In this document: in pieces, positions 13,167-21,476 of the stretch
How the letters are laid out: the number at the start of each line of letters is the position of its first letter
How positions within the stretch are numbered: the first letter of the stretch is position 1
Source of the DNA: Bifidobacterium longum subsp. longum JCM 1217
Lineage (GTDB): Bacteria; Actinomycetota; Actinomycetes; Actinomycetales; Bifidobacteriaceae
DNA: 32,000 bases
Assembly (NCBI RefSeq): GCF_000196555.1
Contig: NC_015067.1
Location: forward strand, 990,001 to 1,022,000
Reading direction: 5' to 3'
The notes under the pieces: model-generated
The model's input: the letters and a program-made list of their open reading frames with translations, nothing else
Databases searched by the model: none
Told to the model about the DNA's origin: nothing
Position numbers and translations under genes: made by a program

Positions 13167-13252
13167 TACCCACCTCGCTTATGCTCAGTGGGCCCGATTA
13201 TACCTATCGTTGAAACATCTGTAGAGTGAGGGGCATAAATCGAAAGGCGTCA

Positions 13253-14077
13253 ATGATGAACGGAACATTCGAGCAGTTAAGAGCAGCCGTGTATGGCCAA
13301 GCAGTCGGTGATGCCTTGGGCGTACCTTATGAATTCATGCCGAGAGATACCTTCCGATGCGAAGGTATGACGGGATACGGTACGCATAACCAGCCGATTG
13401 GCACATGGTCGGACGATACCAGCATGATGCTCGCCACATTGGACTCGCTGATCGCCAATGAATGGCAAGTCAATACTGAAGATATGCGAGAGCGATATCT
13501 GGCATGGCTGAGTAATGGCGAATACGCGATTGACGGACGAGTCTTTGATTGCGGGCGAACGGTCTCCATCGCGTTGCAGCAGCGTGTGGGCTTAAGCGGT
13601 GAACGAGACAATGGCAACGGCTCACTGATGCGGATCATGCCGTTGGCGTTCGCGGATGCTTCCGCGGATGACGTACGTGCCGCATCTGCAATCACGCACG
13701 CCCATGCAATCTCGATGGATGCCTGTTCGAGCATGGTGGATGTGTTGCGCGACGGACTCATCAAAGGCATATGGCCGCAAGAGCTGGATGATGAACCGCT
13801 ACGCGGTATGCCGCGTGATGAAGTTGGTTCGAGCGGCTTCGTCAAAGACACGTATGAGGCGGCGCTCTGGTGCCTCGCGAATACCGATGATTATGCGAGT
13901 TGTGTGCTCGCCGCCGTCAACTTGGGTGACGATACAGACACGACCGCCGCCGTCGCCGGATACCTGGCCGGCATCAAATATGGATTCGATGCCATTCCCG
14001 CTCAGTGGCTGGCGGTATTGCGCGGACGTGAGTTTATTGAGGATGTGCTTGGACGGACGGAGTCGGCGTGGCATTAA
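13253..14077 (+). CDS. ADP-ribosylglycohydrolase family protein (ARH/DraG-like)
   Basis: GQAVGDALGVPYEF, WSDDTSMMLA, GNGSLMRIMPLA and GDDTDTTAAVAGYLAG are the family metal-binding motifs, and all are intact. GAAAGG RBS precedes the ATG at 13253. Confidence 0.9.
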   Translation: MMNGTFEQLRAAVYGQAVGDALGVPYEFMPRDTFRCEGMTGYGTHNQPIGTWSDDTSMMLATLDSLIANEWQVNTEDMRERYLAWLSNGEYAIDGRVFDCGRTVSIALQQRVGLSGERDNGNGSLMRIMPLAFADASADDVRAASAITHAHAISMDACSSMVDVLRDGLIKGIWPQELDDEPLRGMPRDEVGSSGFVKDTYEAALWCLANTDDYASCVLAAVNLGDDTDTTAAVAGYLAGIKYGFDAIPAQWLAVLRGREFIEDVLGRTESAWH

Positions 14078-14586: not shown

Positions 14587-15477
14587 ATGGCGGATGATGA
14601 AACTCATATCGGTCGAAATAACGAGGAACGCAAGGAAGACGAAAACCGTCGCATTATGGGAAAGGCGCTGGAAGGTGCTGCGGCGGAAACCGTGCAACGC
14701 TTTGGTTCTGCCGTCAAGGAACATTTAGCGGCCTATGCGGGTGATAGAGAGAATGCTGCCGATGGTAATTCCAAACTGTCTAAGACCTTGAAGTCCATTG
14801 CTGAAACGCCGACAAGTAATGAATTCAAAAAGCAGAACATAGCTCAGCAAGCGGGTTTTAGTGCCGAGGTTGAGTCGGTAGCCAGGAAGAACGCCGATAA
14901 CATTATTGCTGGCAACGATACGCGATTCAAACGATATGATGACGTGAAGCATTCAGATGGACGGCAGACATCGAACGACCCCATCGTGGATATTGTCGAA
15001 GTGGATGGATTGGGCAAAACGATCATCGGCTCCGAGGCTCAAATGAAGTTCGTCGGCAGTAGCCCGAAAGAGCTGCTTAATGCGTTGAAAAGCAAGGAAT
15101 ATGCGAAATATCGTAATGAAGGCGTCATCATGAATATTCCGGATGATTATTACGATGTACTGATGGGTGATGGGCCTGACGGCATCAACGGACAGATACG
15201 AAAACTTCAGGGCGAGCTGGATGGAGATCGGCTTGCCGGCAAGAATTCTCCAGAGTCTATTCAGCAGCAAATCGATGATCTGAAACAGATTAAGAAAAGC
15301 CTGCGGAAAAGTGGACTTACCAAGCGAGAAGCGTTGTATGCGCGAGAACATCCCAGACGCATGGTGGCGAAAGATGTAGCCAAAGTTGCCAATAAAGCCG
15401 GTCTGCAGCAGGCAAGGAATGGTGCGCTGATTGGTGGTGGTGTTTCTCTGATTCGAAATATGGTTGCCATGCATTAA
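14587..15477 (+). CDS. hypothetical protein, N-terminal part of an apparently frameshift-split gene (operon gene A)
   Basis: GAGGGG RBS. The N-terminus is charged and the core reads QQAGFSAEVESVARKNADNIIAGNDTRFKRYDD. The ORF ends ...GALIGGGVSLIRNMVAMH*, and the downstream frame is already open from 15452. Confidence 0.6.
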   Translation: MADDETHIGRNNEERKEDENRRIMGKALEGAAAETVQRFGSAVKEHLAAYAGDRENAADGNSKLSKTLKSIAETPTSNEFKKQNIAQQAGFSAEVESVARKNADNIIAGNDTRFKRYDDVKHSDGRQTSNDPIVDIVEVDGLGKTIIGSEAQMKFVGSSPKELLNALKSKEYAKYRNEGVIMNIPDDYYDVLMGDGPDGINGQIRKLQGELDGDRLAGKNSPESIQQQIDDLKQIKKSLRKSGLTKREALYAREHPRRMVAKDVAKVANKAGLQQARNGALIGGGVSLIRNMVAMH

Positions 15478-16201
15478 TGGCTCTATTGAGCCAGCGGAGG
15501 CAGCGAGAAACGTCGGCGTCGATGCAGGCTTGGCTGCGGCGTTCGGCTATGTCACCGCTTTTTCCGGCGCTGCCATTAAGGGTGCCATGCAAAACGCGTC
15601 GAGCGAGTATCTGCGTAGTCTATCGAGAACGAACGTTGCAGCTACGATGGTCTCCACTGTAACGGATGTTTCCAAGGTGGTTGCACTGTATTGCCGCGGC
15701 GAGATTACTGGAGCTGTTTGTATAGAGCGCCTCGGCCAGCAGGGAATGGGGCAGCTCGGAGGAGTGATGGGCGTTGCCGTGGCGATGGCCGCAATACCTG
15801 CAGATGGTGCTTTTATGGCTGCGATGGTTGGTATGGCTGGAAGCACCTTGGGATATGCTGCAGCTGTTGCCATATATGAGGAATTATCCACTGCTCTGCA
15901 TGACTATGAGCTGGCGAAAGAGGAGCGTATTCGTGTGGAACGCGAATGTGCGGAAGCGGTGGAGCTCATCCGCCAATATAGGCGTGATATGTCTAGGGAT
16001 GTCGAGAATTATCTGGCGACTCATGATGAATTGTTTAATAGAGCATTCGATGCAATGGATCAAGCGTTGATTTCCAATGATATTGATGGATATTTGGCCG
16101 GAAACGCCGAGATTCAAGAATCCTTGGGATACTTGCCAAGGTTTCGGACTCAGCAGGAGTTTGATGATTTGATGGCGTCAGACGACAATTTCGTTTTATA
16201 A
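15464..16201 (+). CDS. hypothetical Gly/Ala-zipper plus coiled-coil protein, C-terminal part of split gene A
   Basis: There is no ATG or RBS at its 5' end; only a TTG lies inside the overlap. Hydrophobic small-xxx-small segments are present (GMGQLGGVMGVAVAMAAIPADGAFMAAMVGMAGSTLGYAAAVAIY), followed by a charged helical tail. Confidence 0.55.
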   Translation: MPCINGSIEPAEAARNVGVDAGLAAAFGYVTAFSGAAIKGAMQNASSEYLRSLSRTNVAATMVSTVTDVSKVVALYCRGEITGAVCIERLGQQGMGQLGGVMGVAVAMAAIPADGAFMAAMVGMAGSTLGYAAAVAIYEELSTALHDYELAKEERIRVERECAEAVELIRQYRRDMSRDVENYLATHDELFNRAFDAMDQALISNDIDGYLAGNAEIQESLGYLPRFRTQQEFDDLMASDDNFVL

Positions 16202-16215
16202 GGAGGAGCCAGTTA

Positions 16216-17154
16216 ATGAAGTACATCAAAACACGTGATGCATTACAAGCATTTTATTATCTGATTGCTGTCGATGGATCAGTCCGTGACGACGAACGCG
16301 CACTATTCGATCATATAGGTGACAATTTGGATGCAAAGCACTTCCATGATTATCGCAAAGAGATTATCGATTCGTGCGATGAGCGTATAAACCAGTGCCA
16401 CGATTCCGATGATCGCTACGACGTAATTGTTGAGGGTGTTGATGCAGTCTTGTCGCATCGAACGGATAAAAGAGCTGCAGGAATTGCACCAAGGCTGCTT
16501 CTGTGGAATATGTTGTCAGTTGCCTTCGCCGATGGGGAATATGATGCAGTAGAAAGCAGACTCATCAGACATATTGCCCGGACGATGATTGCCGATCGTT
16601 CCATATACCCCGAAATGGAACATCTTATGCGCGCGGCGTATGACGTGCGAGGCGAGCTCGACTGGATCAGCAATTCCGAACTGCCATATAGTGAAGTTCG
16701 CCCCATGGTGGATCAGCTGGAAGAGCGCGTGAATGTTCTCCAAAACGCTGCCGTGTTGCTGATTGAAGACGAGACAGCCGCGCCAGCCCCGGAAGTCATG
16801 GTTCCAGAGAAGGACGTGTTTGATCAGACCAAGGATGCCGTTGACTCGGTGGTCGCTCCGGTTGTGGATCAGGTTCAGCAGGGTGCTCAGGGAGCCGCGG
16901 ATGCGGTGAAGCATACGTTTGACAATAATGTTGCTCCTGTTCTCAACCAAGTTGGCGATGCGCTGAAGCCGGTGAATGATGCAGTGCTGAAACCGGTAGG
17001 CAACGCAGCCAATGAGGTTGCGAAACGTGCGGGTGACGCAGCCAATGAGGCTGCAAAACGTGCGGGCGATGCGGCCAATGAGGCTGCAAAACGTGCGGGC
17101 GATGCGGCCAATGCTGTACAAGGCTTCTTCGGTGGCCTCTTTGGACGCAAATAA
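16216..17154 (+). CDS. TerB-domain (tellurite-resistance TerB / DjlA-N-like) protein with a repeat-rich amphipathic C-terminus
   Basis: AAGGAGG RBS. The two TerB half-motifs are AFYYLIAVDGSVRDDERALF and LLLWNMLSVAFADGEYDAVESRLIRHIAR. The C-terminus has 3 x AKRAGDAANEA and ends FFGGLFGRK. Confidence 0.75.
   Translation: MKYIKTRDALQAFYYLIAVDGSVRDDERALFDHIGDNLDAKHFHDYRKEIIDSCDERINQCHDSDDRYDVIVEGVDAVLSHRTDKRAAGIAPRLLLWNMLSVAFADGEYDAVESRLIRHIARTMIADRSIYPEMEHLMRAAYDVRGELDWISNSELPYSEVRPMVDQLEERVNVLQNAAVLLIEDETAAPAPEVMVPEKDVFDQTKDAVDSVVAPVVDQVQQGAQGAADAVKHTFDNNVAPVLNQVGDALKPVNDAVLKPVGNAANEVAKRAGDAANEAAKRAGDAANEAAKRAGDAANAVQGFFGGLFGRK
17011..17109 (+). repeat. 3 x 33-bp in-frame tandem repeat inside the TerB-domain gene
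   Basis: AATGAGG(T/C)TGC(G/A)AAACGTGCGGG(T/C)GA(C/T)GC(A/G)GCC. Copies 2 and 3 are identical and copy 1 differs at a few positions. Confidence 0.9.
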
Positions 17155-17178
17155 GAGAAACCCAGGAAGGAATTCACT

Positions 17179-18171
17179 ATGCCATTTTTTGTTGTTCCAC
17201 TATTCATCGGAATGGCCGCTGCTGCCGGTACCGCAGGCGTGGGTATGGCTGCCAAAGGTAGTCTTGATCAGCACACGGCGAATCAGCTTAACGACAATTC
17301 CGGAGCACGCATTCGATGGGCAGCTAATAACCTCGAAAAGCTTCGTGGGCAATGTTCGGATTCCCTGAATGCCTTGGGCAAAGAGAAAGTCATCATTTTG
17401 GATGGGAGCGTTCAGCGCTTCCTTGATGCTTTTCAACAGTTGAAAAATGTTGATTTCACCGCGTCCGAAGGGCTTGATGAACTCAATAAACTGCGCATAG
17501 ACAAAGCGGCTTTTGATGAACTTAAAACCATGGGAAACATAGCTTCGTCTTTGCTGGAAGGCGGTGTGGCCGGGGCAGCCAGCGGTGCATTGGCTGCGTT
17601 TGGCGCATATAGTGCCGCGTCGGCACTTGCCACGGCTTCCACAGGAACTGCGATCAGTGCATTAAGTGGTGTGGCTGCTTCCAACGCCACGTTGGCGTTC
17701 TTCGGGGGAGGGTCCTTGGCTGCAGGTGGCTTGGGCATGGCCGGTGGCGCCGCTGTACTTGGAGGTTTAGTCGCAGGTCCTGCATTGCTGGTCATGGGCG
17801 TTATCATCGGTGCCAAGGGTGGCAAAAACCTTGAGGAAGCGAAGACCCAGTCTGCTGAGGCAAGCAAATATTGTGAGCAGATGATGGCCGGTGCGGACCA
17901 GTGCGTTGCCATTCGTCGGCGTAGTTATATGTTCCACGCTTTGCTTGCCCGTCTTGATGCTAAATTCCTGCCTTCAATTCTTGAAATGGAAAATATCATA
18001 AAGACCGAGGGAACGGATTATTCGCAATTCCGTCAGGAAAGTAAGAAGACTATTGCCGCAGCTGCGTCCACTGCAGCATCAATCAAGGCCGTGCTAGATA
18101 CTCCTCTGCTGGCCGAGGATGGGTCACTTACTTTGGAGTCGGAGAAGCTGATGAAGAACAGTGGCATTTGA
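17179..18171 (+). CDS. hypothetical membrane protein with an N-terminal TM helix, coiled coil and a central Gly/Ala-zipper block (operon gene C)
   Basis: GGAAGGA RBS. N-terminus MPFFVVPLFIGMAAAAGTAGVGMAA. Central block NATLAFFGGGSLAAGGLGMAGGAAVLGGLVAGPALLVMGVIIGAKGG. The C-terminal region is helical. Confidence 0.7.
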   Translation: MPFFVVPLFIGMAAAAGTAGVGMAAKGSLDQHTANQLNDNSGARIRWAANNLEKLRGQCSDSLNALGKEKVIILDGSVQRFLDAFQQLKNVDFTASEGLDELNKLRIDKAAFDELKTMGNIASSLLEGGVAGAASGALAAFGAYSAASALATASTGTAISALSGVAASNATLAFFGGGSLAAGGLGMAGGAAVLGGLVAGPALLVMGVIIGAKGGKNLEEAKTQSAEASKYCEQMMAGADQCVAIRRRSYMFHALLARLDAKFLPSILEMENIIKTEGTDYSQFRQESKKTIAAAASTAASIKAVLDTPLLAEDGSLTLESEKLMKNSGI

Positions 18172-18198: not shown

Positions 18199-18426
18199 AT
18201 GGTTCTGTGTCTTCTTCCGTTGATTTTGGGATATGGCGAGAATCCGTTGCCCGAGATGACGAGTCTTGCGGAAGCTCATGGCATTCGACTATTTAGTCTG
18301 CCGACTGTCGGACGAGAAGTGGATGCTTTCAGTTTTATGTTCGATGGTGTGCCGTATATCGCGGTAGATACCAGCAAGACCGCAGAACGTGTCCGTTTTG
18401 ATATCGCACATGGAATGGGCATCTGA
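18199..18426 (+). pseudogene. ImmA/IrrE-family metallopeptidase relic, 5' fragment
   Basis: ...AEAHGIRLFSLP...DAFSFMFDGVPYIAV...RVRFDIAHGMGI*. The expected HExxH reads HGMG, and the frame stops inside the motif. Confidence 0.65.
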
Positions 18427-18917
18427 TGATGCGTGAAATGGTATCCGAGGATGTAGCTGCCGCAGTAACGCGCGATATCGAAGGTGAAGCTCATTCGTTC
18501 GCCGCGAATCTTTTGATGCCGAAGCGCCGTGTTCTGGGCATGGTGCCGACTCACGCTTCAGTGTCGCAGATTTTGGCTGCGAAACATTATTTCAAGGTTT
18601 CCGCAATGGCTATGGCTCGCCGGGCCTATGAGCTGGGCCGATTGTCTGAATGGGAATATCGGCAGGTTTGCTCAGAACTGACGGTTCAAGGATACAAGAG
18701 TGGCGAGCCACGTGATCTGCGCCCAGAACAGTCGAAGGTATTCCGATTCGTGGCTGATACCAATAGGCAGAAGGGCATATCGGTTTCTACGGTGAGTGAG
18801 GAGACCGGGCTTGTGCCCAAAGAATTGCATGGATTGTCGTTTGGAAATATTTGGGCGGTTACGGGTGGGAGTAGCCTGAGTCAGAGAGCCATCTTGGGTC
18901 GAAATGAATCTGTTTGA
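18426..18917 (+). pseudogene. ImmA/IrrE-family metallopeptidase relic, 3' fragment
   Basis: EGEAHSFAANLLMP is the conserved third-ligand region (E..AN.FA..LLMP). It continues the 5' fragment after a 1-nt frame change. Confidence 0.65.
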
Positions 18918-19225: not shown

Positions 19226-21022
19226 TTACTTACCATCCCTATGGTCACTTTCGTCGAGCGGGATTAGAGTAATGTGCGAGAAATCTATTACATCGCCGAA
19301 GAATACTTGTGATTCGTATTTCCGGACCTTGGCAGTGGCTGTGACAATTTTCTTAGCCACCACGCCATTGACTCCATCCATCGGCAGCAACCTGTATTCT
19401 CCGGTTTTCTCGGAAATCGTTTTGCATCCAGAGACGTTTGCGTACCACTGATAGTATCCAAGGAAGACTTTCCGCCTTCCCACATAGGCATTCAAACGGC
19501 TGACTCCATGAATGCAAGAAGGGAAACTCACCTTGCGTATCGACATGCCTGGATTAAGAGTGAAGGATAGTCCGTCCCACTTGTGGAAGATATAAGCATT
19601 CTTATGTTCCAGTAGAGCCAGAGCGATAATGTCGTTCTGGATGTCGAAGTCTCTGATTTCTTTGAACTCCGGGAACAAGATCTCTGACGAGGAACGCCGC
19701 TGAAGATCACTGTACAGCTGGGCAATTTCTTGCAGCTGCGCAAAATCAGGAAGATTATTAGTCGGCAAGTTGTCAATAGACAGGAAGGCTTCACCGTCAG
19801 GCGAGTGAAGGTTGAACTCCGATCCCTGCGAGAGCTCCTGACAAACGGTTATGGCGTCTTTGACCTTATCAACCGGCTTGCCCACTATATTTTTGATGGT
19901 GAAATTCATCTTGACCGTCGTGGTCGCATCACCATCAAAAATAAGTTGGACCCGAAGGCACTCGCTTTCATCCTCACCAGTCCATTGAGCACCGCCTTCA
20001 ATCCCGTGAGTGCGCTCAACCTGTTTAAGCGACACGGAAGCAGAAGGCGAGGCCAAGATAAGCTCTAAATCATTCCCTTCATTCTGCGGGAGAATGAACG
20101 CCCGGCAGGACTGTATCTGCGCATCGGGCAGCGTGTCCTTCAGAAACGGGATATTGCCAGTATCCGCAAGACGAACAGGGAAATCAGCAAGTGAGGTGCC
20201 ATATTTTTTGAACGACTCAAGCTGCTCACGTTGCTCTTGGTTCTGTGGCACAAACTGCACGGGGAAGGTTATCTTCGCGAATGACGTCGCTTCCTTGTAC
20301 TTGGCGATCACATCAACGGTGATTGACGACCCGTCCGGCCTCTTTTCCAAAAAAGAGAAAACGAGGTTCGGTCTCGTAATGAAATATGAATGCTCGTCGA
20401 ACTTACTGGCGATGTTCACGGTATAGGCATAGTTGGGATCACGATTTTCCAGCATGTCACAAATCGAGTGAAGTTTCGACAGCAGCGCTTTATCATCATG
20501 CAGATCGTCCACACGAGCGGCTTCGATAAATGTATGGACCAATCGCTCCACTTCGCGTATACCGTTACCGAGGAAATAGTCATAGACCTCGGGCATATCG
20601 GTAGCCCAAGCTTGGATGTTGGGTAGCCCGACCCAATCACAATTATATGGCAGTTCCTTCGTTATTTCCTTGAACCATTTCAGATTCTGCGGAGTTGGAT
20701 CCAAGGGCAAGACCAGATACCAGTTCGCCACCTTATAGCCGGTTTCCCGGATATAGTCGTTCAGCGACTTCAGCGACTTCTTAATCTGACTCTTCTGGCT
20801 GGTTTTAAGAGTATGGGCAAACTTCTTCACCTGATAAACGTCATAGGTGCCATCACCGTTCTTCACCTGAAGATCTATCCCATTGTCACCGGATGAAGGG
20901 CGAACACGGTTTGCCTCAGGACGCTGCTTGCAAATAAATACGGCAAGCAGCGTCTCCATATCCTCGCCGGACAGATTCCCCCATGGAATAGGATCAACCA
21001 CGAAAACCTCGCTTCTTGCCAA
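19226..21022 (-). CDS. large hypothetical protein with an N-terminal Mrr-like PD-(D/E)xK (restriction endonuclease fold) domain
   Basis: EDMETLLAVF...SSGDNGIDLQVKNGDGTYDVYQVKKF matches the Mrr_cat pattern (E...D.GID...Q.K). There is no Walker A and no other recognisable domain in the remaining 450 aa or so. The start is uncertain: TTG at 21022, GTG at 21001 preceded by GAGG, or ATG at 20959. Confidence 0.7.
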   Translation of the reverse strand: MARSEVFVVDPIPWGNLSGEDMETLLAVFICKQRPEANRVRPSSGDNGIDLQVKNGDGTYDVYQVKKFAHTLKTSQKSQIKKSLKSLNDYIRETGYKVANWYLVLPLDPTPQNLKWFKEITKELPYNCDWVGLPNIQAWATDMPEVYDYFLGNGIREVERLVHTFIEAARVDDLHDDKALLSKLHSICDMLENRDPNYAYTVNIASKFDEHSYFITRPNLVFSFLEKRPDGSSITVDVIAKYKEATSFAKITFPVQFVPQNQEQREQLESFKKYGTSLADFPVRLADTGNIPFLKDTLPDAQIQSCRAFILPQNEGNDLELILASPSASVSLKQVERTHGIEGGAQWTGEDESECLRVQLIFDGDATTTVKMNFTIKNIVGKPVDKVKDAITVCQELSQGSEFNLHSPDGEAFLSIDNLPTNNLPDFAQLQEIAQLYSDLQRRSSSEILFPEFKEIRDFDIQNDIIALALLEHKNAYIFHKWDGLSFTLNPGMSIRKVSFPSCIHGVSRLNAYVGRRKVFLGYYQWYANVSGCKTISEKTGEYRLLPMDGVNGVVAKKIVTATAKVRKYESQVFFGDVIDFSHITLIPLDESDHRDGK

Positions 21023-21130: not shown

Positions 21131-21148
21131 TTAGAACATATGTTCTAA
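21131..21148. promoter_or_regulatory. perfect 18-bp palindrome TTAGAACATATGTTCTAA, a LexA (Cheo/SOS box)-like operator candidate
   Basis: It contains GAAC-N4-GTTC, the core of Gram-positive and actinobacterial LexA boxes. It lies about 110 bp upstream of the 598-aa gene. A TAGATA -10-like hexamer (minus strand, 21111-21116) lies 14 nt downstream of it. Confidence 0.35.
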
Positions 21149-21476
21149 CATGTGGCCTTGACGCAAGCCTACGGCGGCGGCAATCGCTGACTTCGGACGG
21201 TTGATGACAAACAGACGTACCTCGACTTGGCTAAACACTAGTATTAGCTGAGTCCAGACTCTAGACGGATTGGAGATTCGCAAGTGAGCAAGAGCCCGGT
21301 AGCTCATCCCACCAAGTATGACCCCCGGCCCACGCCCCGTTGCCGGAGACTGACCGAGCCGGATCGTGAGTCGGCTCATGCTCCCGCCAGCGAGGGCGTG
21401 AACCGACGAACCATTCCTCTAGGCGAATGGTCGGGACAGCATAGCCGAAGTACGCTGTCCCAGCTGACTCCATCCC

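Follow-up and report, generated by a model that had tools for sequence, protein, structure and literature searches.

A candidate single-gene defence protein of Bifidobacterium longum combines a Mrr/Cap4-type nuclease head with a body undescribed in profile libraries

The stretch of DNA analyzed here (referred to as the window) comprises 32,000 nucleotides of the genome of Bifidobacterium longum subsp. longum JCM 1217 (NC_015067.1, positions 990,001 to 1,022,000) and contains a minus-strand gene, probably extending over 19226..21001, whose predicted product consists of an N-terminal nuclease head of the Mrr/Cap4 type, a helical linker and a large acidic, beta-rich body. By analogy with characterized systems, we regard this gene, at a probability of about one half, as coding for a self-contained single-polypeptide sensor-nuclease that serves in defence and resides on mobile DNA. 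The original prediction of a single-gene defence effector, which had been made from the letters of the window alone, stands as a well-founded candidate, with the function in defence being what we infer from the evidence below. The superfamily of the head and the overall plan, namely an effector nuclease joined to a regulatory domain and encoded by a single gene in a defence island, are known, whereas the body, and hence the family, is undescribed in the profile libraries and the literature searched.

An intact nuclease head

The nuclease core occupies residues 12-131 (20630..20989, minus strand; in the numbering of the 598-aa frame discussed below), as delimited by profile matches, Foldseek comparisons, modelled secondary structure and residue conservation, and these four lines of evidence agree with the Mrr-like head proposed originally. 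The motifs quoted in that proposal are all present: GEDMETLLAVF supplies E23 in helix 1, SGDNGIDL provides the array G45-D46-x-G48-x-D50 leading into a strand, and YDVYQVKKF contains the Q64-x-K66 that ends the next strand. The D...QxK motif together with an extra glutamate in helix 1 is what we take to be the Mrr-type variant of the PD-(D/E)xK signature. Among 154 diverse representatives of the family, with a median head identity of 42% to the window protein, K66 is present in 154 of 154, Q64 in 153 of 154, D46 and D50 in 152 of 152 each, and E23 in 144 of 146 sequences. As judged from sequence and model, the head is an intact Mrr/Cap4-type PD-(D/E)xK DNA endonuclease domain, and the near-invariance of its catalytic residues indicates an active enzyme; the D46/D50/Q64/K66 motif, on whose integrity the original prediction depended, is found intact in the sequence.

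The top profile match of the head is LmuA from PADLOC (PDLC03851, E 1.5e-7), which recurs in 33 of 38 family members. These matches end at position 138 of 343 of the profile (or 128 of 336) and are thus confined to the head. The PADLOC profile of Avs2 also matches the head, at E 0.002 in the window protein and in 9 of the 38 members, restricted to profile positions 36-107 of 1,504. Pfam Mrr_cat (PF04471) gives weak matches in 9 of the 38 members (best E 2.2e-4) and none at E<=10 for the window protein itself, which is therefore below the Pfam gathering threshold, and Pfam RE_EcoO109I reaches E 0.056 for the window protein. In a full-length AlphaFold2 model with a mean predicted local distance difference test (pLDDT) value of 81.9, the head shows helices at residues 19-33 and 74-94 and strands at about 38 (short), 49-54, 60-65 and 98-104, corresponding to the alpha-beta-beta-beta-alpha-beta order expected for the core fold of the superfamily. 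Foldseek comparisons of this model with PDB and BFVD yielded matches to the head alone. They comprise EcoO109I, EndoMS (5gkj), Cap4 (6vm5; probability 0.90, 161 columns, TM score to the query 0.14), Avs4 (8dgf; probability 0.98), Nt.BspD6I and the N-domain of RPB5, with probabilities of 0.85-1.0 over 118-213 columns only and TM scores to the query of <=0.15. The many alignments of the full model with Hsp70 structures were discarded (TM score ~0.1, root-mean-square deviation (rmsd) >20 Å). The head had originally been estimated at about 110 aa, which underrates the conserved N-terminal unit: nuclease core and helical linker together account for some 196 aa.

The linker and a rapidly diverging body

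The linker (residues 132-196; 20435..20629, minus strand) is predicted to consist of helices at residues 133-142, 144-151, 154-169 and 177-194 and contains two near-invariant pairs, D148-Y149 and D195-P196, the members of which are present in 147, 148, 147 and 153 of the 154 representatives, respectively. Its mean pairwise identity is 0.36, and its ratio of nonsynonymous to synonymous substitution rates (dN/dS), 0.09 among Collinsella copies, is the lowest of all segments.

The body (residues 197-598; 19229..20434, minus strand) is about 400 aa long, not 450 aa as originally assumed. Its AlphaFold2 model, built separately on a 38-sequence alignment (pLDDT 82.8, predicted TM score 0.69), is beta-rich and appears to comprise about three subdomains. 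The original description of this part of the protein as unknown was confirmed in the profile libraries and in PDB, both by sequence and by fold. Searches of Pfam, NCBIfam and PHROGs with the full protein gave nothing significant, no model of Pfam, NCBIfam, PADLOC or PHROGs reaches the body in any member searched, and sequence searches of PDB returned no match, whether they started from the single protein or from the profile of the body or of the full sequence. When the body model was compared with PDB by Foldseek, all probabilities were <=0.14 and all TM scores <=0.21; alignments to Ig-Fc and ependymin-type structures were discarded at rmsd values of 12-26 Å. The comparison of sub-alignments by hhalign (probabilities <=0.5%) gave no indication of an internal duplication of the body.

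All 26 non-redundant members have an acidic body (median net charge -17.5, isoelectric point 4.9). The positions conserved in it are almost exclusively G, P, Y, W or L; no catalytic-type residue is conserved, nor any basic or aromatic residues resembling a binding pocket beyond the structural G, P, Y and W. From sequence and model, we regard the body as a predicted binding or regulatory module without enzymatic function. Mean pairwise identity falls from 0.45 in the head and 0.36 in the linker to 0.30 in the body, dropping to 0.17 at its C-terminal end. A corresponding gradient is seen in the dN/dS values of 18 close Collinsella copies, with 0.12 in the head and about three times as much, 0.33, in residues 401-580, and purifying selection throughout; the rise towards the C-terminus is weaker in three Bifidobacterium copies. 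Two distant members from the scan of the phylum were matched by HMMER in head and linker only, and their bodies align to that of the window protein in profile-profile comparisons with probabilities of 95-96% (E 3e-9 and 5e-8). On this evidence, the combination of head and body is a single fixed architecture with a very fast-diverging body.

Reading frame and start codon

The list of open reading frames (ORFs) and their translations gives a minus-strand frame of 598 aa with a TTG start (19226-21022), which was the gene of the original prediction. The frame itself exists and is open up to TTG 21022, but its translation probably starts at GTG 21001, giving a protein of 591 aa (19226..21001). This start is preferred because a GAGG Shine-Dalgarno sequence, read from the sequence at 21007..21010 (minus strand), lies 5 nt 5' of the GTG, because in an alignment of the loci the ATG of the orthologue from B. 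hapali aligns exactly with it while the upstream TTG is not conserved, and because all close homologues have the N-terminus MVDPIPW. The GAGG is also kept upstream of the B. hapali gene. The dN/dS values of 0.06-0.34 in each segment of the gene indicate that the whole ORF is under purifying selection. Neither a Walker motif nor a transmembrane segment is evident in the protein (maximum Kyte-Doolittle mean over 19 residues, 1.05), as had been noted originally.

A large, accessory and mobile family

The protein had been taken for an orphan, which proved wrong: an exhaustive profile search returned 2,667 cluster representatives at E<=1e-3, of which 714 reached E<=1e-30. With clusters counted at 50% identity, the family comprises at least 714 clusters, and nearly all of the top 150 matches are of full length (550-620 aa). 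A word-indexed search retrieved 19 relatives. In a scan of species genomes, 51 loci were detected, all but two of which are labelled Actinomycetota, the exceptions being short contigs labelled Bacteroidaceae and Eubacterium. The taxa concerned include Bifidobacterium, Galliscardovia, many Collinsella, Nocardia, Nocardioides and Micromonospora, and the family is common in human-gut Bifidobacterium and in Collinsella. Public annotation of the members is limited to "hypothetical protein" or a generic "restriction endonuclease", with some entries labelled "Restriction endonuclease type IV Mrr domain" in UniRef, and the PADLOC model set of 2023 does not include the family.

The distribution is patchy. 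Family members occur in 5 of 149 genomes of the genus, including that of the window. Among 400 other genomes sampled from the phylum, 5 (~1%) carry a member, only two of these being full-length matches to the hidden Markov model. Relatives are found on 12 actinobacterial plasmids, 7 of which are mobilizable or conjugative, and none was detected among 50,697 phage records. This is an accessory and mobile family, and a housekeeping function of the homologues, which the original prediction had named as one of the findings that would speak against it, is contradicted by the patchy distribution. Six of the 51 loci (L017, L031, L042, L058, L059 and L060) carry copies disrupted by internal stops or truncation, which implies repeated gene loss and fits a costly accessory gene.

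The cluster of sequences with at least 90% identity to the window protein contains 793 members, one of which is present on at least 1,000 contigs and annotated only as "hypothetical protein [Bifidobacterium adolescentis]". A copy with 95% identity is found in B. biavatii, directly following another ORF and without the upstream palindrome described below. The copies in B. adolescentis (>=90%) and B. biavatii (95%) suggest a recent horizontal spread among gut bifidobacteria into differing sites.

Genomic neighbours and the search for a partner gene

The 128 proteins flanking the gene at 22 non-redundant loci include no Pfam or PADLOC family with more than four occurrences, and no ORF of >=35 aa within 1.5 kb is common to more than two of 25 loci. 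As judged from these comparisons, the gene is a single-gene unit in which head and body always occur together without a conserved partner gene, small ones included. The window itself agrees with the original statement that neither a methyltransferase nor a partner gene is located nearby. Methyltransferases near some of the homologues belong to separate complete restriction-modification (R-M) pairs (BstXI, MvaI/BcnI, type IIG) and are not conserved.

The neighbourhood of the homologues in other genomes is rich in R-M, defence and mobile-element genes. The complete R-M systems found there are BstXI, MvaI/BcnI (twice), Eco57I/type IIG (twice) and type I; further defence neighbours are Gabija GajB, GmrSD, a reverse transcriptase, AlbA_2/Schlafen-type, DUF4145 and PIN proteins; and the mobile-element neighbours comprise prophage tail and lysin genes, prophage ends, integrases, an excisionase-type protein with a helix-turn-helix (HTH) domain of the HTH_17 family, and TrwC. 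The expectation that homologues would be enriched beside defence genes holds in this sense, but the enrichment is about twofold and rests on a crude comparison: the number of PADLOC family matches per protein is 4.4 in the proximal flanks and 2.2 in the distal flanks (genes 6-10 kb away in the same loci, identified with the same ORF caller), with no significance test applied, and the distal set also holds type I R-M, MADS and PARIS components.

At two loci, the family gene is arranged closely with R-M genes. At locus L062 (3683-8318, minus strand), a very divergent member of 540 aa overlaps the stop codon of a type IIG gene by 14 nt; the type IIG enzyme (1,008 aa) is self-contained, with an HSDR_N nuclease, an Eco57I/MmeI methylase and a TaqI_C domain, and genes for DUF5655 and DUF4145 proteins follow on the same strand, so that the cluster may be co-transcribed. 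In B. psychraerophilum (L004), the family gene is located directly after an Eco57I-type gene and an ORF of 854 aa.

Relation to known systems

The closest parallel in the head is provided by LmuA of the Lamassu systems (e.g., DdmA of Vibrio cholerae), which likewise carries an N-terminal Cap4-type nuclease, with the catalytic lysine at K57 in LmuA and at K66 in the window protein. Cryo-electron microscopy of LmuA revealed an inactive monomer and an active tetramer, whose C-terminal domains pair two Cap4 N-terminal domains around double-stranded DNA (bioRxiv 10.1101/2025.04.02.646746). The C-terminal domain of LmuA governs its activation by oligomerization, and by analogy the same working principle is likely in the window protein. 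Unlike LmuA, however, the window protein shows no similarity to the C-terminal domain of LmuA, its body being about twice as long as that domain, and neither LmuB (SMC) nor LmuC is encoded adjacent to the gene in any locus examined, the window included. A genome-wide search for DUF3732 gave no match, but control genomes gave none either.

Cap4 of CBASS systems (6vm5) resembles the window protein in combining an N-terminal PD-(D/E)xK nuclease of the same subtype with a C-terminal regulatory domain in one polypeptide, but the body of the window protein is not of the SAVED/CARF type, and the protein is longer by ~100-150 aa. Pfam detected no SAVED domain in the protein or the members, and Foldseek with the body alone matched no SAVED or CARF structure; a genome-wide search for SAVED returned no match, but again control genomes gave none either. 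A search of the whole genome for SMODS, indicative of a CD-NTase, was blank while control genomes responded, and no nucleotidyltransferase is among the recurrent neighbour families listed. Avs2 and Avs4 (8dgf) possess a related N-terminal Mrr-like effector head, and their sensing of phage proteins, followed by DNA cleavage upon oligomerization, serves as the model for the mode of action proposed below, but the window protein contains no STAND nucleoside triphosphatase (NTPase), Walker A/B motifs or TPR sensor and has about a third of their size; a Walker A-like string occurs in only 1 of 38 family members.

Upx represents a precedent for the overall design, since it is also a single polypeptide without an NTPase and without a partner gene, in which a beta-rich sensor of previously unknown fold is joined to a PD-(D/E)xK nuclease. 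It differs in its size of ~1,200 aa and in the reverse order of its parts, the sensor being N-terminal and the catalytic nuclease C-terminal (E1176), and should be regarded as an analogue, not a relative. Four PADLOC families match the window protein at E<=10, none of which is Upx. Both the NTPase-free Upx, which recognizes the large terminase of phages, and the Avs proteins with Mrr-like heads, which also sense phage terminase, act through their nucleases after recognition (PMC13601566).

The modification-dependent enzymes (Mrr, MspJI, PvuRts1I/AbaSI and the END nucleases) share the D...QxK motif, combine a nuclease with a separate domain for recognition, have no methyltransferase partner and are likewise co-located with R-M systems. 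They differ from the window protein in that its body is acidic and without a known reader fold, and that the nuclease is C-terminal in Mrr and MspJI; none of the reader domains SRA, PUA/EVE, winged helix, iEndoIII and DUF3427 was found by Pfam or by Foldseek with the body alone. The END nucleases have an N-terminal nuclease and a C-terminal sensor, the standard modular design of modification-dependent enzymes (PMC12191111), and are analogues, not relatives. Two further classes do not fit the window: no cognate methyltransferase, as would belong to a type II R-M system, is adjacent to the gene, and the RmrA-like gene that might indicate a RosmerTA system is split, N-terminally incomplete and convergent, with no ImmA/IrrE gene recurring at other loci.

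Proposed mode of action and alternative explanations

If the gene indeed codes for a sensor-nuclease in defence, the resting protein would be a latent monomer, because one Cap4/Mrr head alone cannot form a site for double-strand cleavage. The acidic, fast-evolving body would act as a sensor and regulatory module, which together with the linker would keep the head latent. Recognition by the body of an infection cue, for which a phage protein is the most likely candidate and an unusual nucleic acid a less likely one, would lead to self-association via linker and body and bring two heads together. The assembled enzyme would degrade DNA, with the result that phage replication is stopped directly or that the infected cell is killed. 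In the lineage of B. longum and B. hapali, expression may additionally be gated by an operator with the core of an SOS box (see below). The acidity of the body, the lack of conserved catalytic-type residues and the rapid C-terminal divergence fit a protein-binding sensor better than a reader of DNA. A more specific proposal, possible but tentative, is that the body has an unseen fold and constitutes a minimal NTPase-free pattern-recognition module, which binds a conserved phage protein and switches on the Cap4/Mrr nuclease by self-assembly.

Some observations weigh against a sensor-nuclease in defence. The roughly twofold enrichment of defence genes near the family members is only weakly suggestive, and some loci, e.g. 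L008, have no obvious defence neighbour. Acidic domains like this body are frequent among actinobacterial proteins in general. The sensor modules of Avs, Lamassu and Shedu systems are characteristically shuffled onto different effectors, and the body studied here was not found fused to any other effector head in a word-indexed search of limited sensitivity, in which all 16 matches either carry the same head or are 5'-truncated fragments; the absence of such fusions among these matches weakens the argument for a sensor module.

The principal alternative, which we consider doubtful, is a modification-dependent (type IV-like) restriction endonuclease, in which the body is a new reader of modified or hypermodified bases and the Mrr-type head cuts nearby; this would entail neither sensing of a phage protein nor cell death. 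Mrr_cat is indeed the nearest Pfam family of the head (9 of 38 members), some UniRef labels refer to type IV Mrr, and a nuclease plus a sensor without a methyltransferase is the standard design of modification-dependent enzymes (PMC12191111). The repeated siting beside R-M systems points in the same direction, a fast-evolving C-terminal region would suit changing specificities, and the absence of a partner fits a constitutive enzyme that ignores host DNA and needs no immunity gene. However, profiles and Foldseek revealed no known reader fold in the body (SRA, PUA/EVE, winged helix, HhH/EndoIII or DUF3427), and its strong acidity in every member (median net charge -17.5) is unusual for DNA binding. 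It also lacks conserved basic or aromatic pocket-like residues beyond the structural G, P, Y and W, and the best profiles of the head are those of effector heads of abortive infection systems (LmuA, Avs2), not Mrr.

The protein may alternatively serve the mobile elements themselves, either in competition or exclusion among plasmids and integrative and conjugative elements or as an SOS-induced nuclease acting on host or rival DNA upon activation of the element, with phage protection being secondary. This explanation appears improbable, even if it accounts for the 12 plasmids, 7 of them mobilizable or conjugative, for the integrase, HTH_17 and TrwC neighbours and the positions at prophage ends, for the operator-like palindrome with an SOS-box core kept in two species, and for the disruption of 6 of 51 copies, as would be expected for dispensable cargo. 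Defence genes typically ride on such elements, so the context does not separate the two readings; the family is missing from the 50,697 phage records, and the palindrome is confined to 2 of 45 loci and has outer bases unlike the CGAAC...GTTCG of recA. Still less likely is an effector detached from a multi-gene system with partners encoded elsewhere, for example a Lamassu LmuA, a Cap4-like CBASS receptor of a nucleotide signal or the toxin belonging to the RosmerTA-like relic nearby. It would explain LmuA as the best sequence match, the Foldseek match to Cap4 and the RmrA-like ImmA/IrrE gene 300 bp away (E 4e-39), but the LmuA matches cover only positions 19-138 of ~340 and stop short of the C-terminal domain that binds LmuB and LmuC, no SMC-like or other partner recurs in 22-25 loci, the SMODS search, to which control genomes responded, indicated no CD-NTase in the genome, and no SAVED domain was matched in the protein. 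The RmrA relic is decayed, being truncated, frameshifted and in convergent orientation, and none of the other loci contains it. A housekeeping or DNA-repair nuclease resembling EndoMS/NucS, or an orphan type II restriction enzyme, is hardly credible: EndoMS (5gkj) and EcoO109I are high-probability Foldseek matches over the head and RE_EcoO109I reaches E 0.056 in Pfam, but these structural matches comprise only the generic PD-(D/E)xK core (118-213 columns, TM scores <=0.15). Furthermore, a type II enzyme without its cognate methyltransferase, which is not conserved next to the gene, would be lethal, and occurrence in 5 of 149 genomes of the genus and 5 of 400 of the phylum, in an island of foreign composition and on plasmids, does not accord with housekeeping.

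Known defence systems are strongly biased to Proteobacteria and Firmicutes, and the Actinomycetota are under-explored. If its members act in defence, the family would contribute a compact system encoded by one gene, with a sensor domain of unknown fold, and offer a tractable case of how a Cap4/Mrr head can be controlled when NTPase, SMC partner and nucleotide signal are all lacking. If the tentative assignment of a pattern-recognition module were true, it would represent a new and widespread class of single-chain innate immune receptors in Actinomycetota, including human-gut Bifidobacterium and Collinsella. In probiotic Bifidobacterium strains, the family could also influence the susceptibility to phages and, through plasmid uptake, the genetic tractability.

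Upstream region

A perfect 18-bp palindrome, TTAGAACATATGTTCTAA, is located at 21131..21148, about 130 bp upstream of the start, and is a candidate operator. It shares the core GAACANNTGTTC with the SOS boxes of recA (CGAACAAATGTTCG) and lexA (CGAACAGATGTTCT and CGAACAACTGTTCT) of the same genome; in its outer bases, it departs from the CGAAC...GTTCG form of the recA box. The core accounts for 13 of the 100 GAAC-N4-GTTC sites in the 2.39-Mb genome. An identical 18-mer is present 147 bp upstream of the orthologous gene of B. hapali, amid diverged flanks, and the palindrome is absent from the other 43 of 45 loci, including that of B. biavatii. It is plausibly an operator, perhaps for LexA, in one small clade only.

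Further upstream, a non-coding stretch of about 100 bp (21221..21321, minus strand) is >90% identical to the B. hapali locus in a pairwise alignment, while the sequence between it and the palindrome has diverged. This stretch travels with the nuclease gene. Its frame contains a stop in B. hapali and therefore does not represent a conserved ORF, and a search of the conserved upstream region against Rfam gave sub-threshold noise only. It may represent a promoter or leader, a small RNA or the boundary of a cassette.

The island around the gene in the window

The gene is located at the right-hand edge of an island of about 50% GC content, which extends over ~12-21 kb of the window and is flanked by sequences of 60-68% GC. 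The original description of a minus-strand gene in an AT-rich island, convergent with a TerB operon and an ImmA relic, is correct in these respects. The relic is a split ImmA/IrrE (Peptidase_M78) gene (18199-18917, plus strand), which ends 300 bp from the nuclease gene, is distributed over two frames and matches positions 207-344 of 363 of the PADLOC profile RmrA (E 4e-39) as well as CapP (3e-11). The RmrA match corresponds to the C-terminal two-thirds of the RosmerTA antitoxin; the N-terminal part with the HTH is missing, and no toxin gene is evident. The relic looks like the remnant of a decayed module of the RosmerTA or CapP type.

The TerB operon (14587-18171, plus strand) shows PADLOC matches to PDC-M09. 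It consists of an ORF with a weak match to PDC-M09B (14587-15477, E 3.6e-5), an ORF with a weak LeoBC match (15464-16201), the gene for the TerB protein (16216-17154) and the ORF for the PADLOC candidate PDC-M09A (17179-18171, E 1.7e-23), all on the plus strand and in this order, so that the LeoBC-like ORF lies between the PDC-M09B and TerB ORFs and TerB between those of PDC-M09B and PDC-M09A. The same island contains an ORF for an ADP-ribosylglycohydrolase (13226-14077, plus strand; Pfam E 4.6e-56). In the other genomes, an ADP_ribosyl_GH protein was encountered near a family member a single time, and this parallel is probably a coincidence of what the islands contain.

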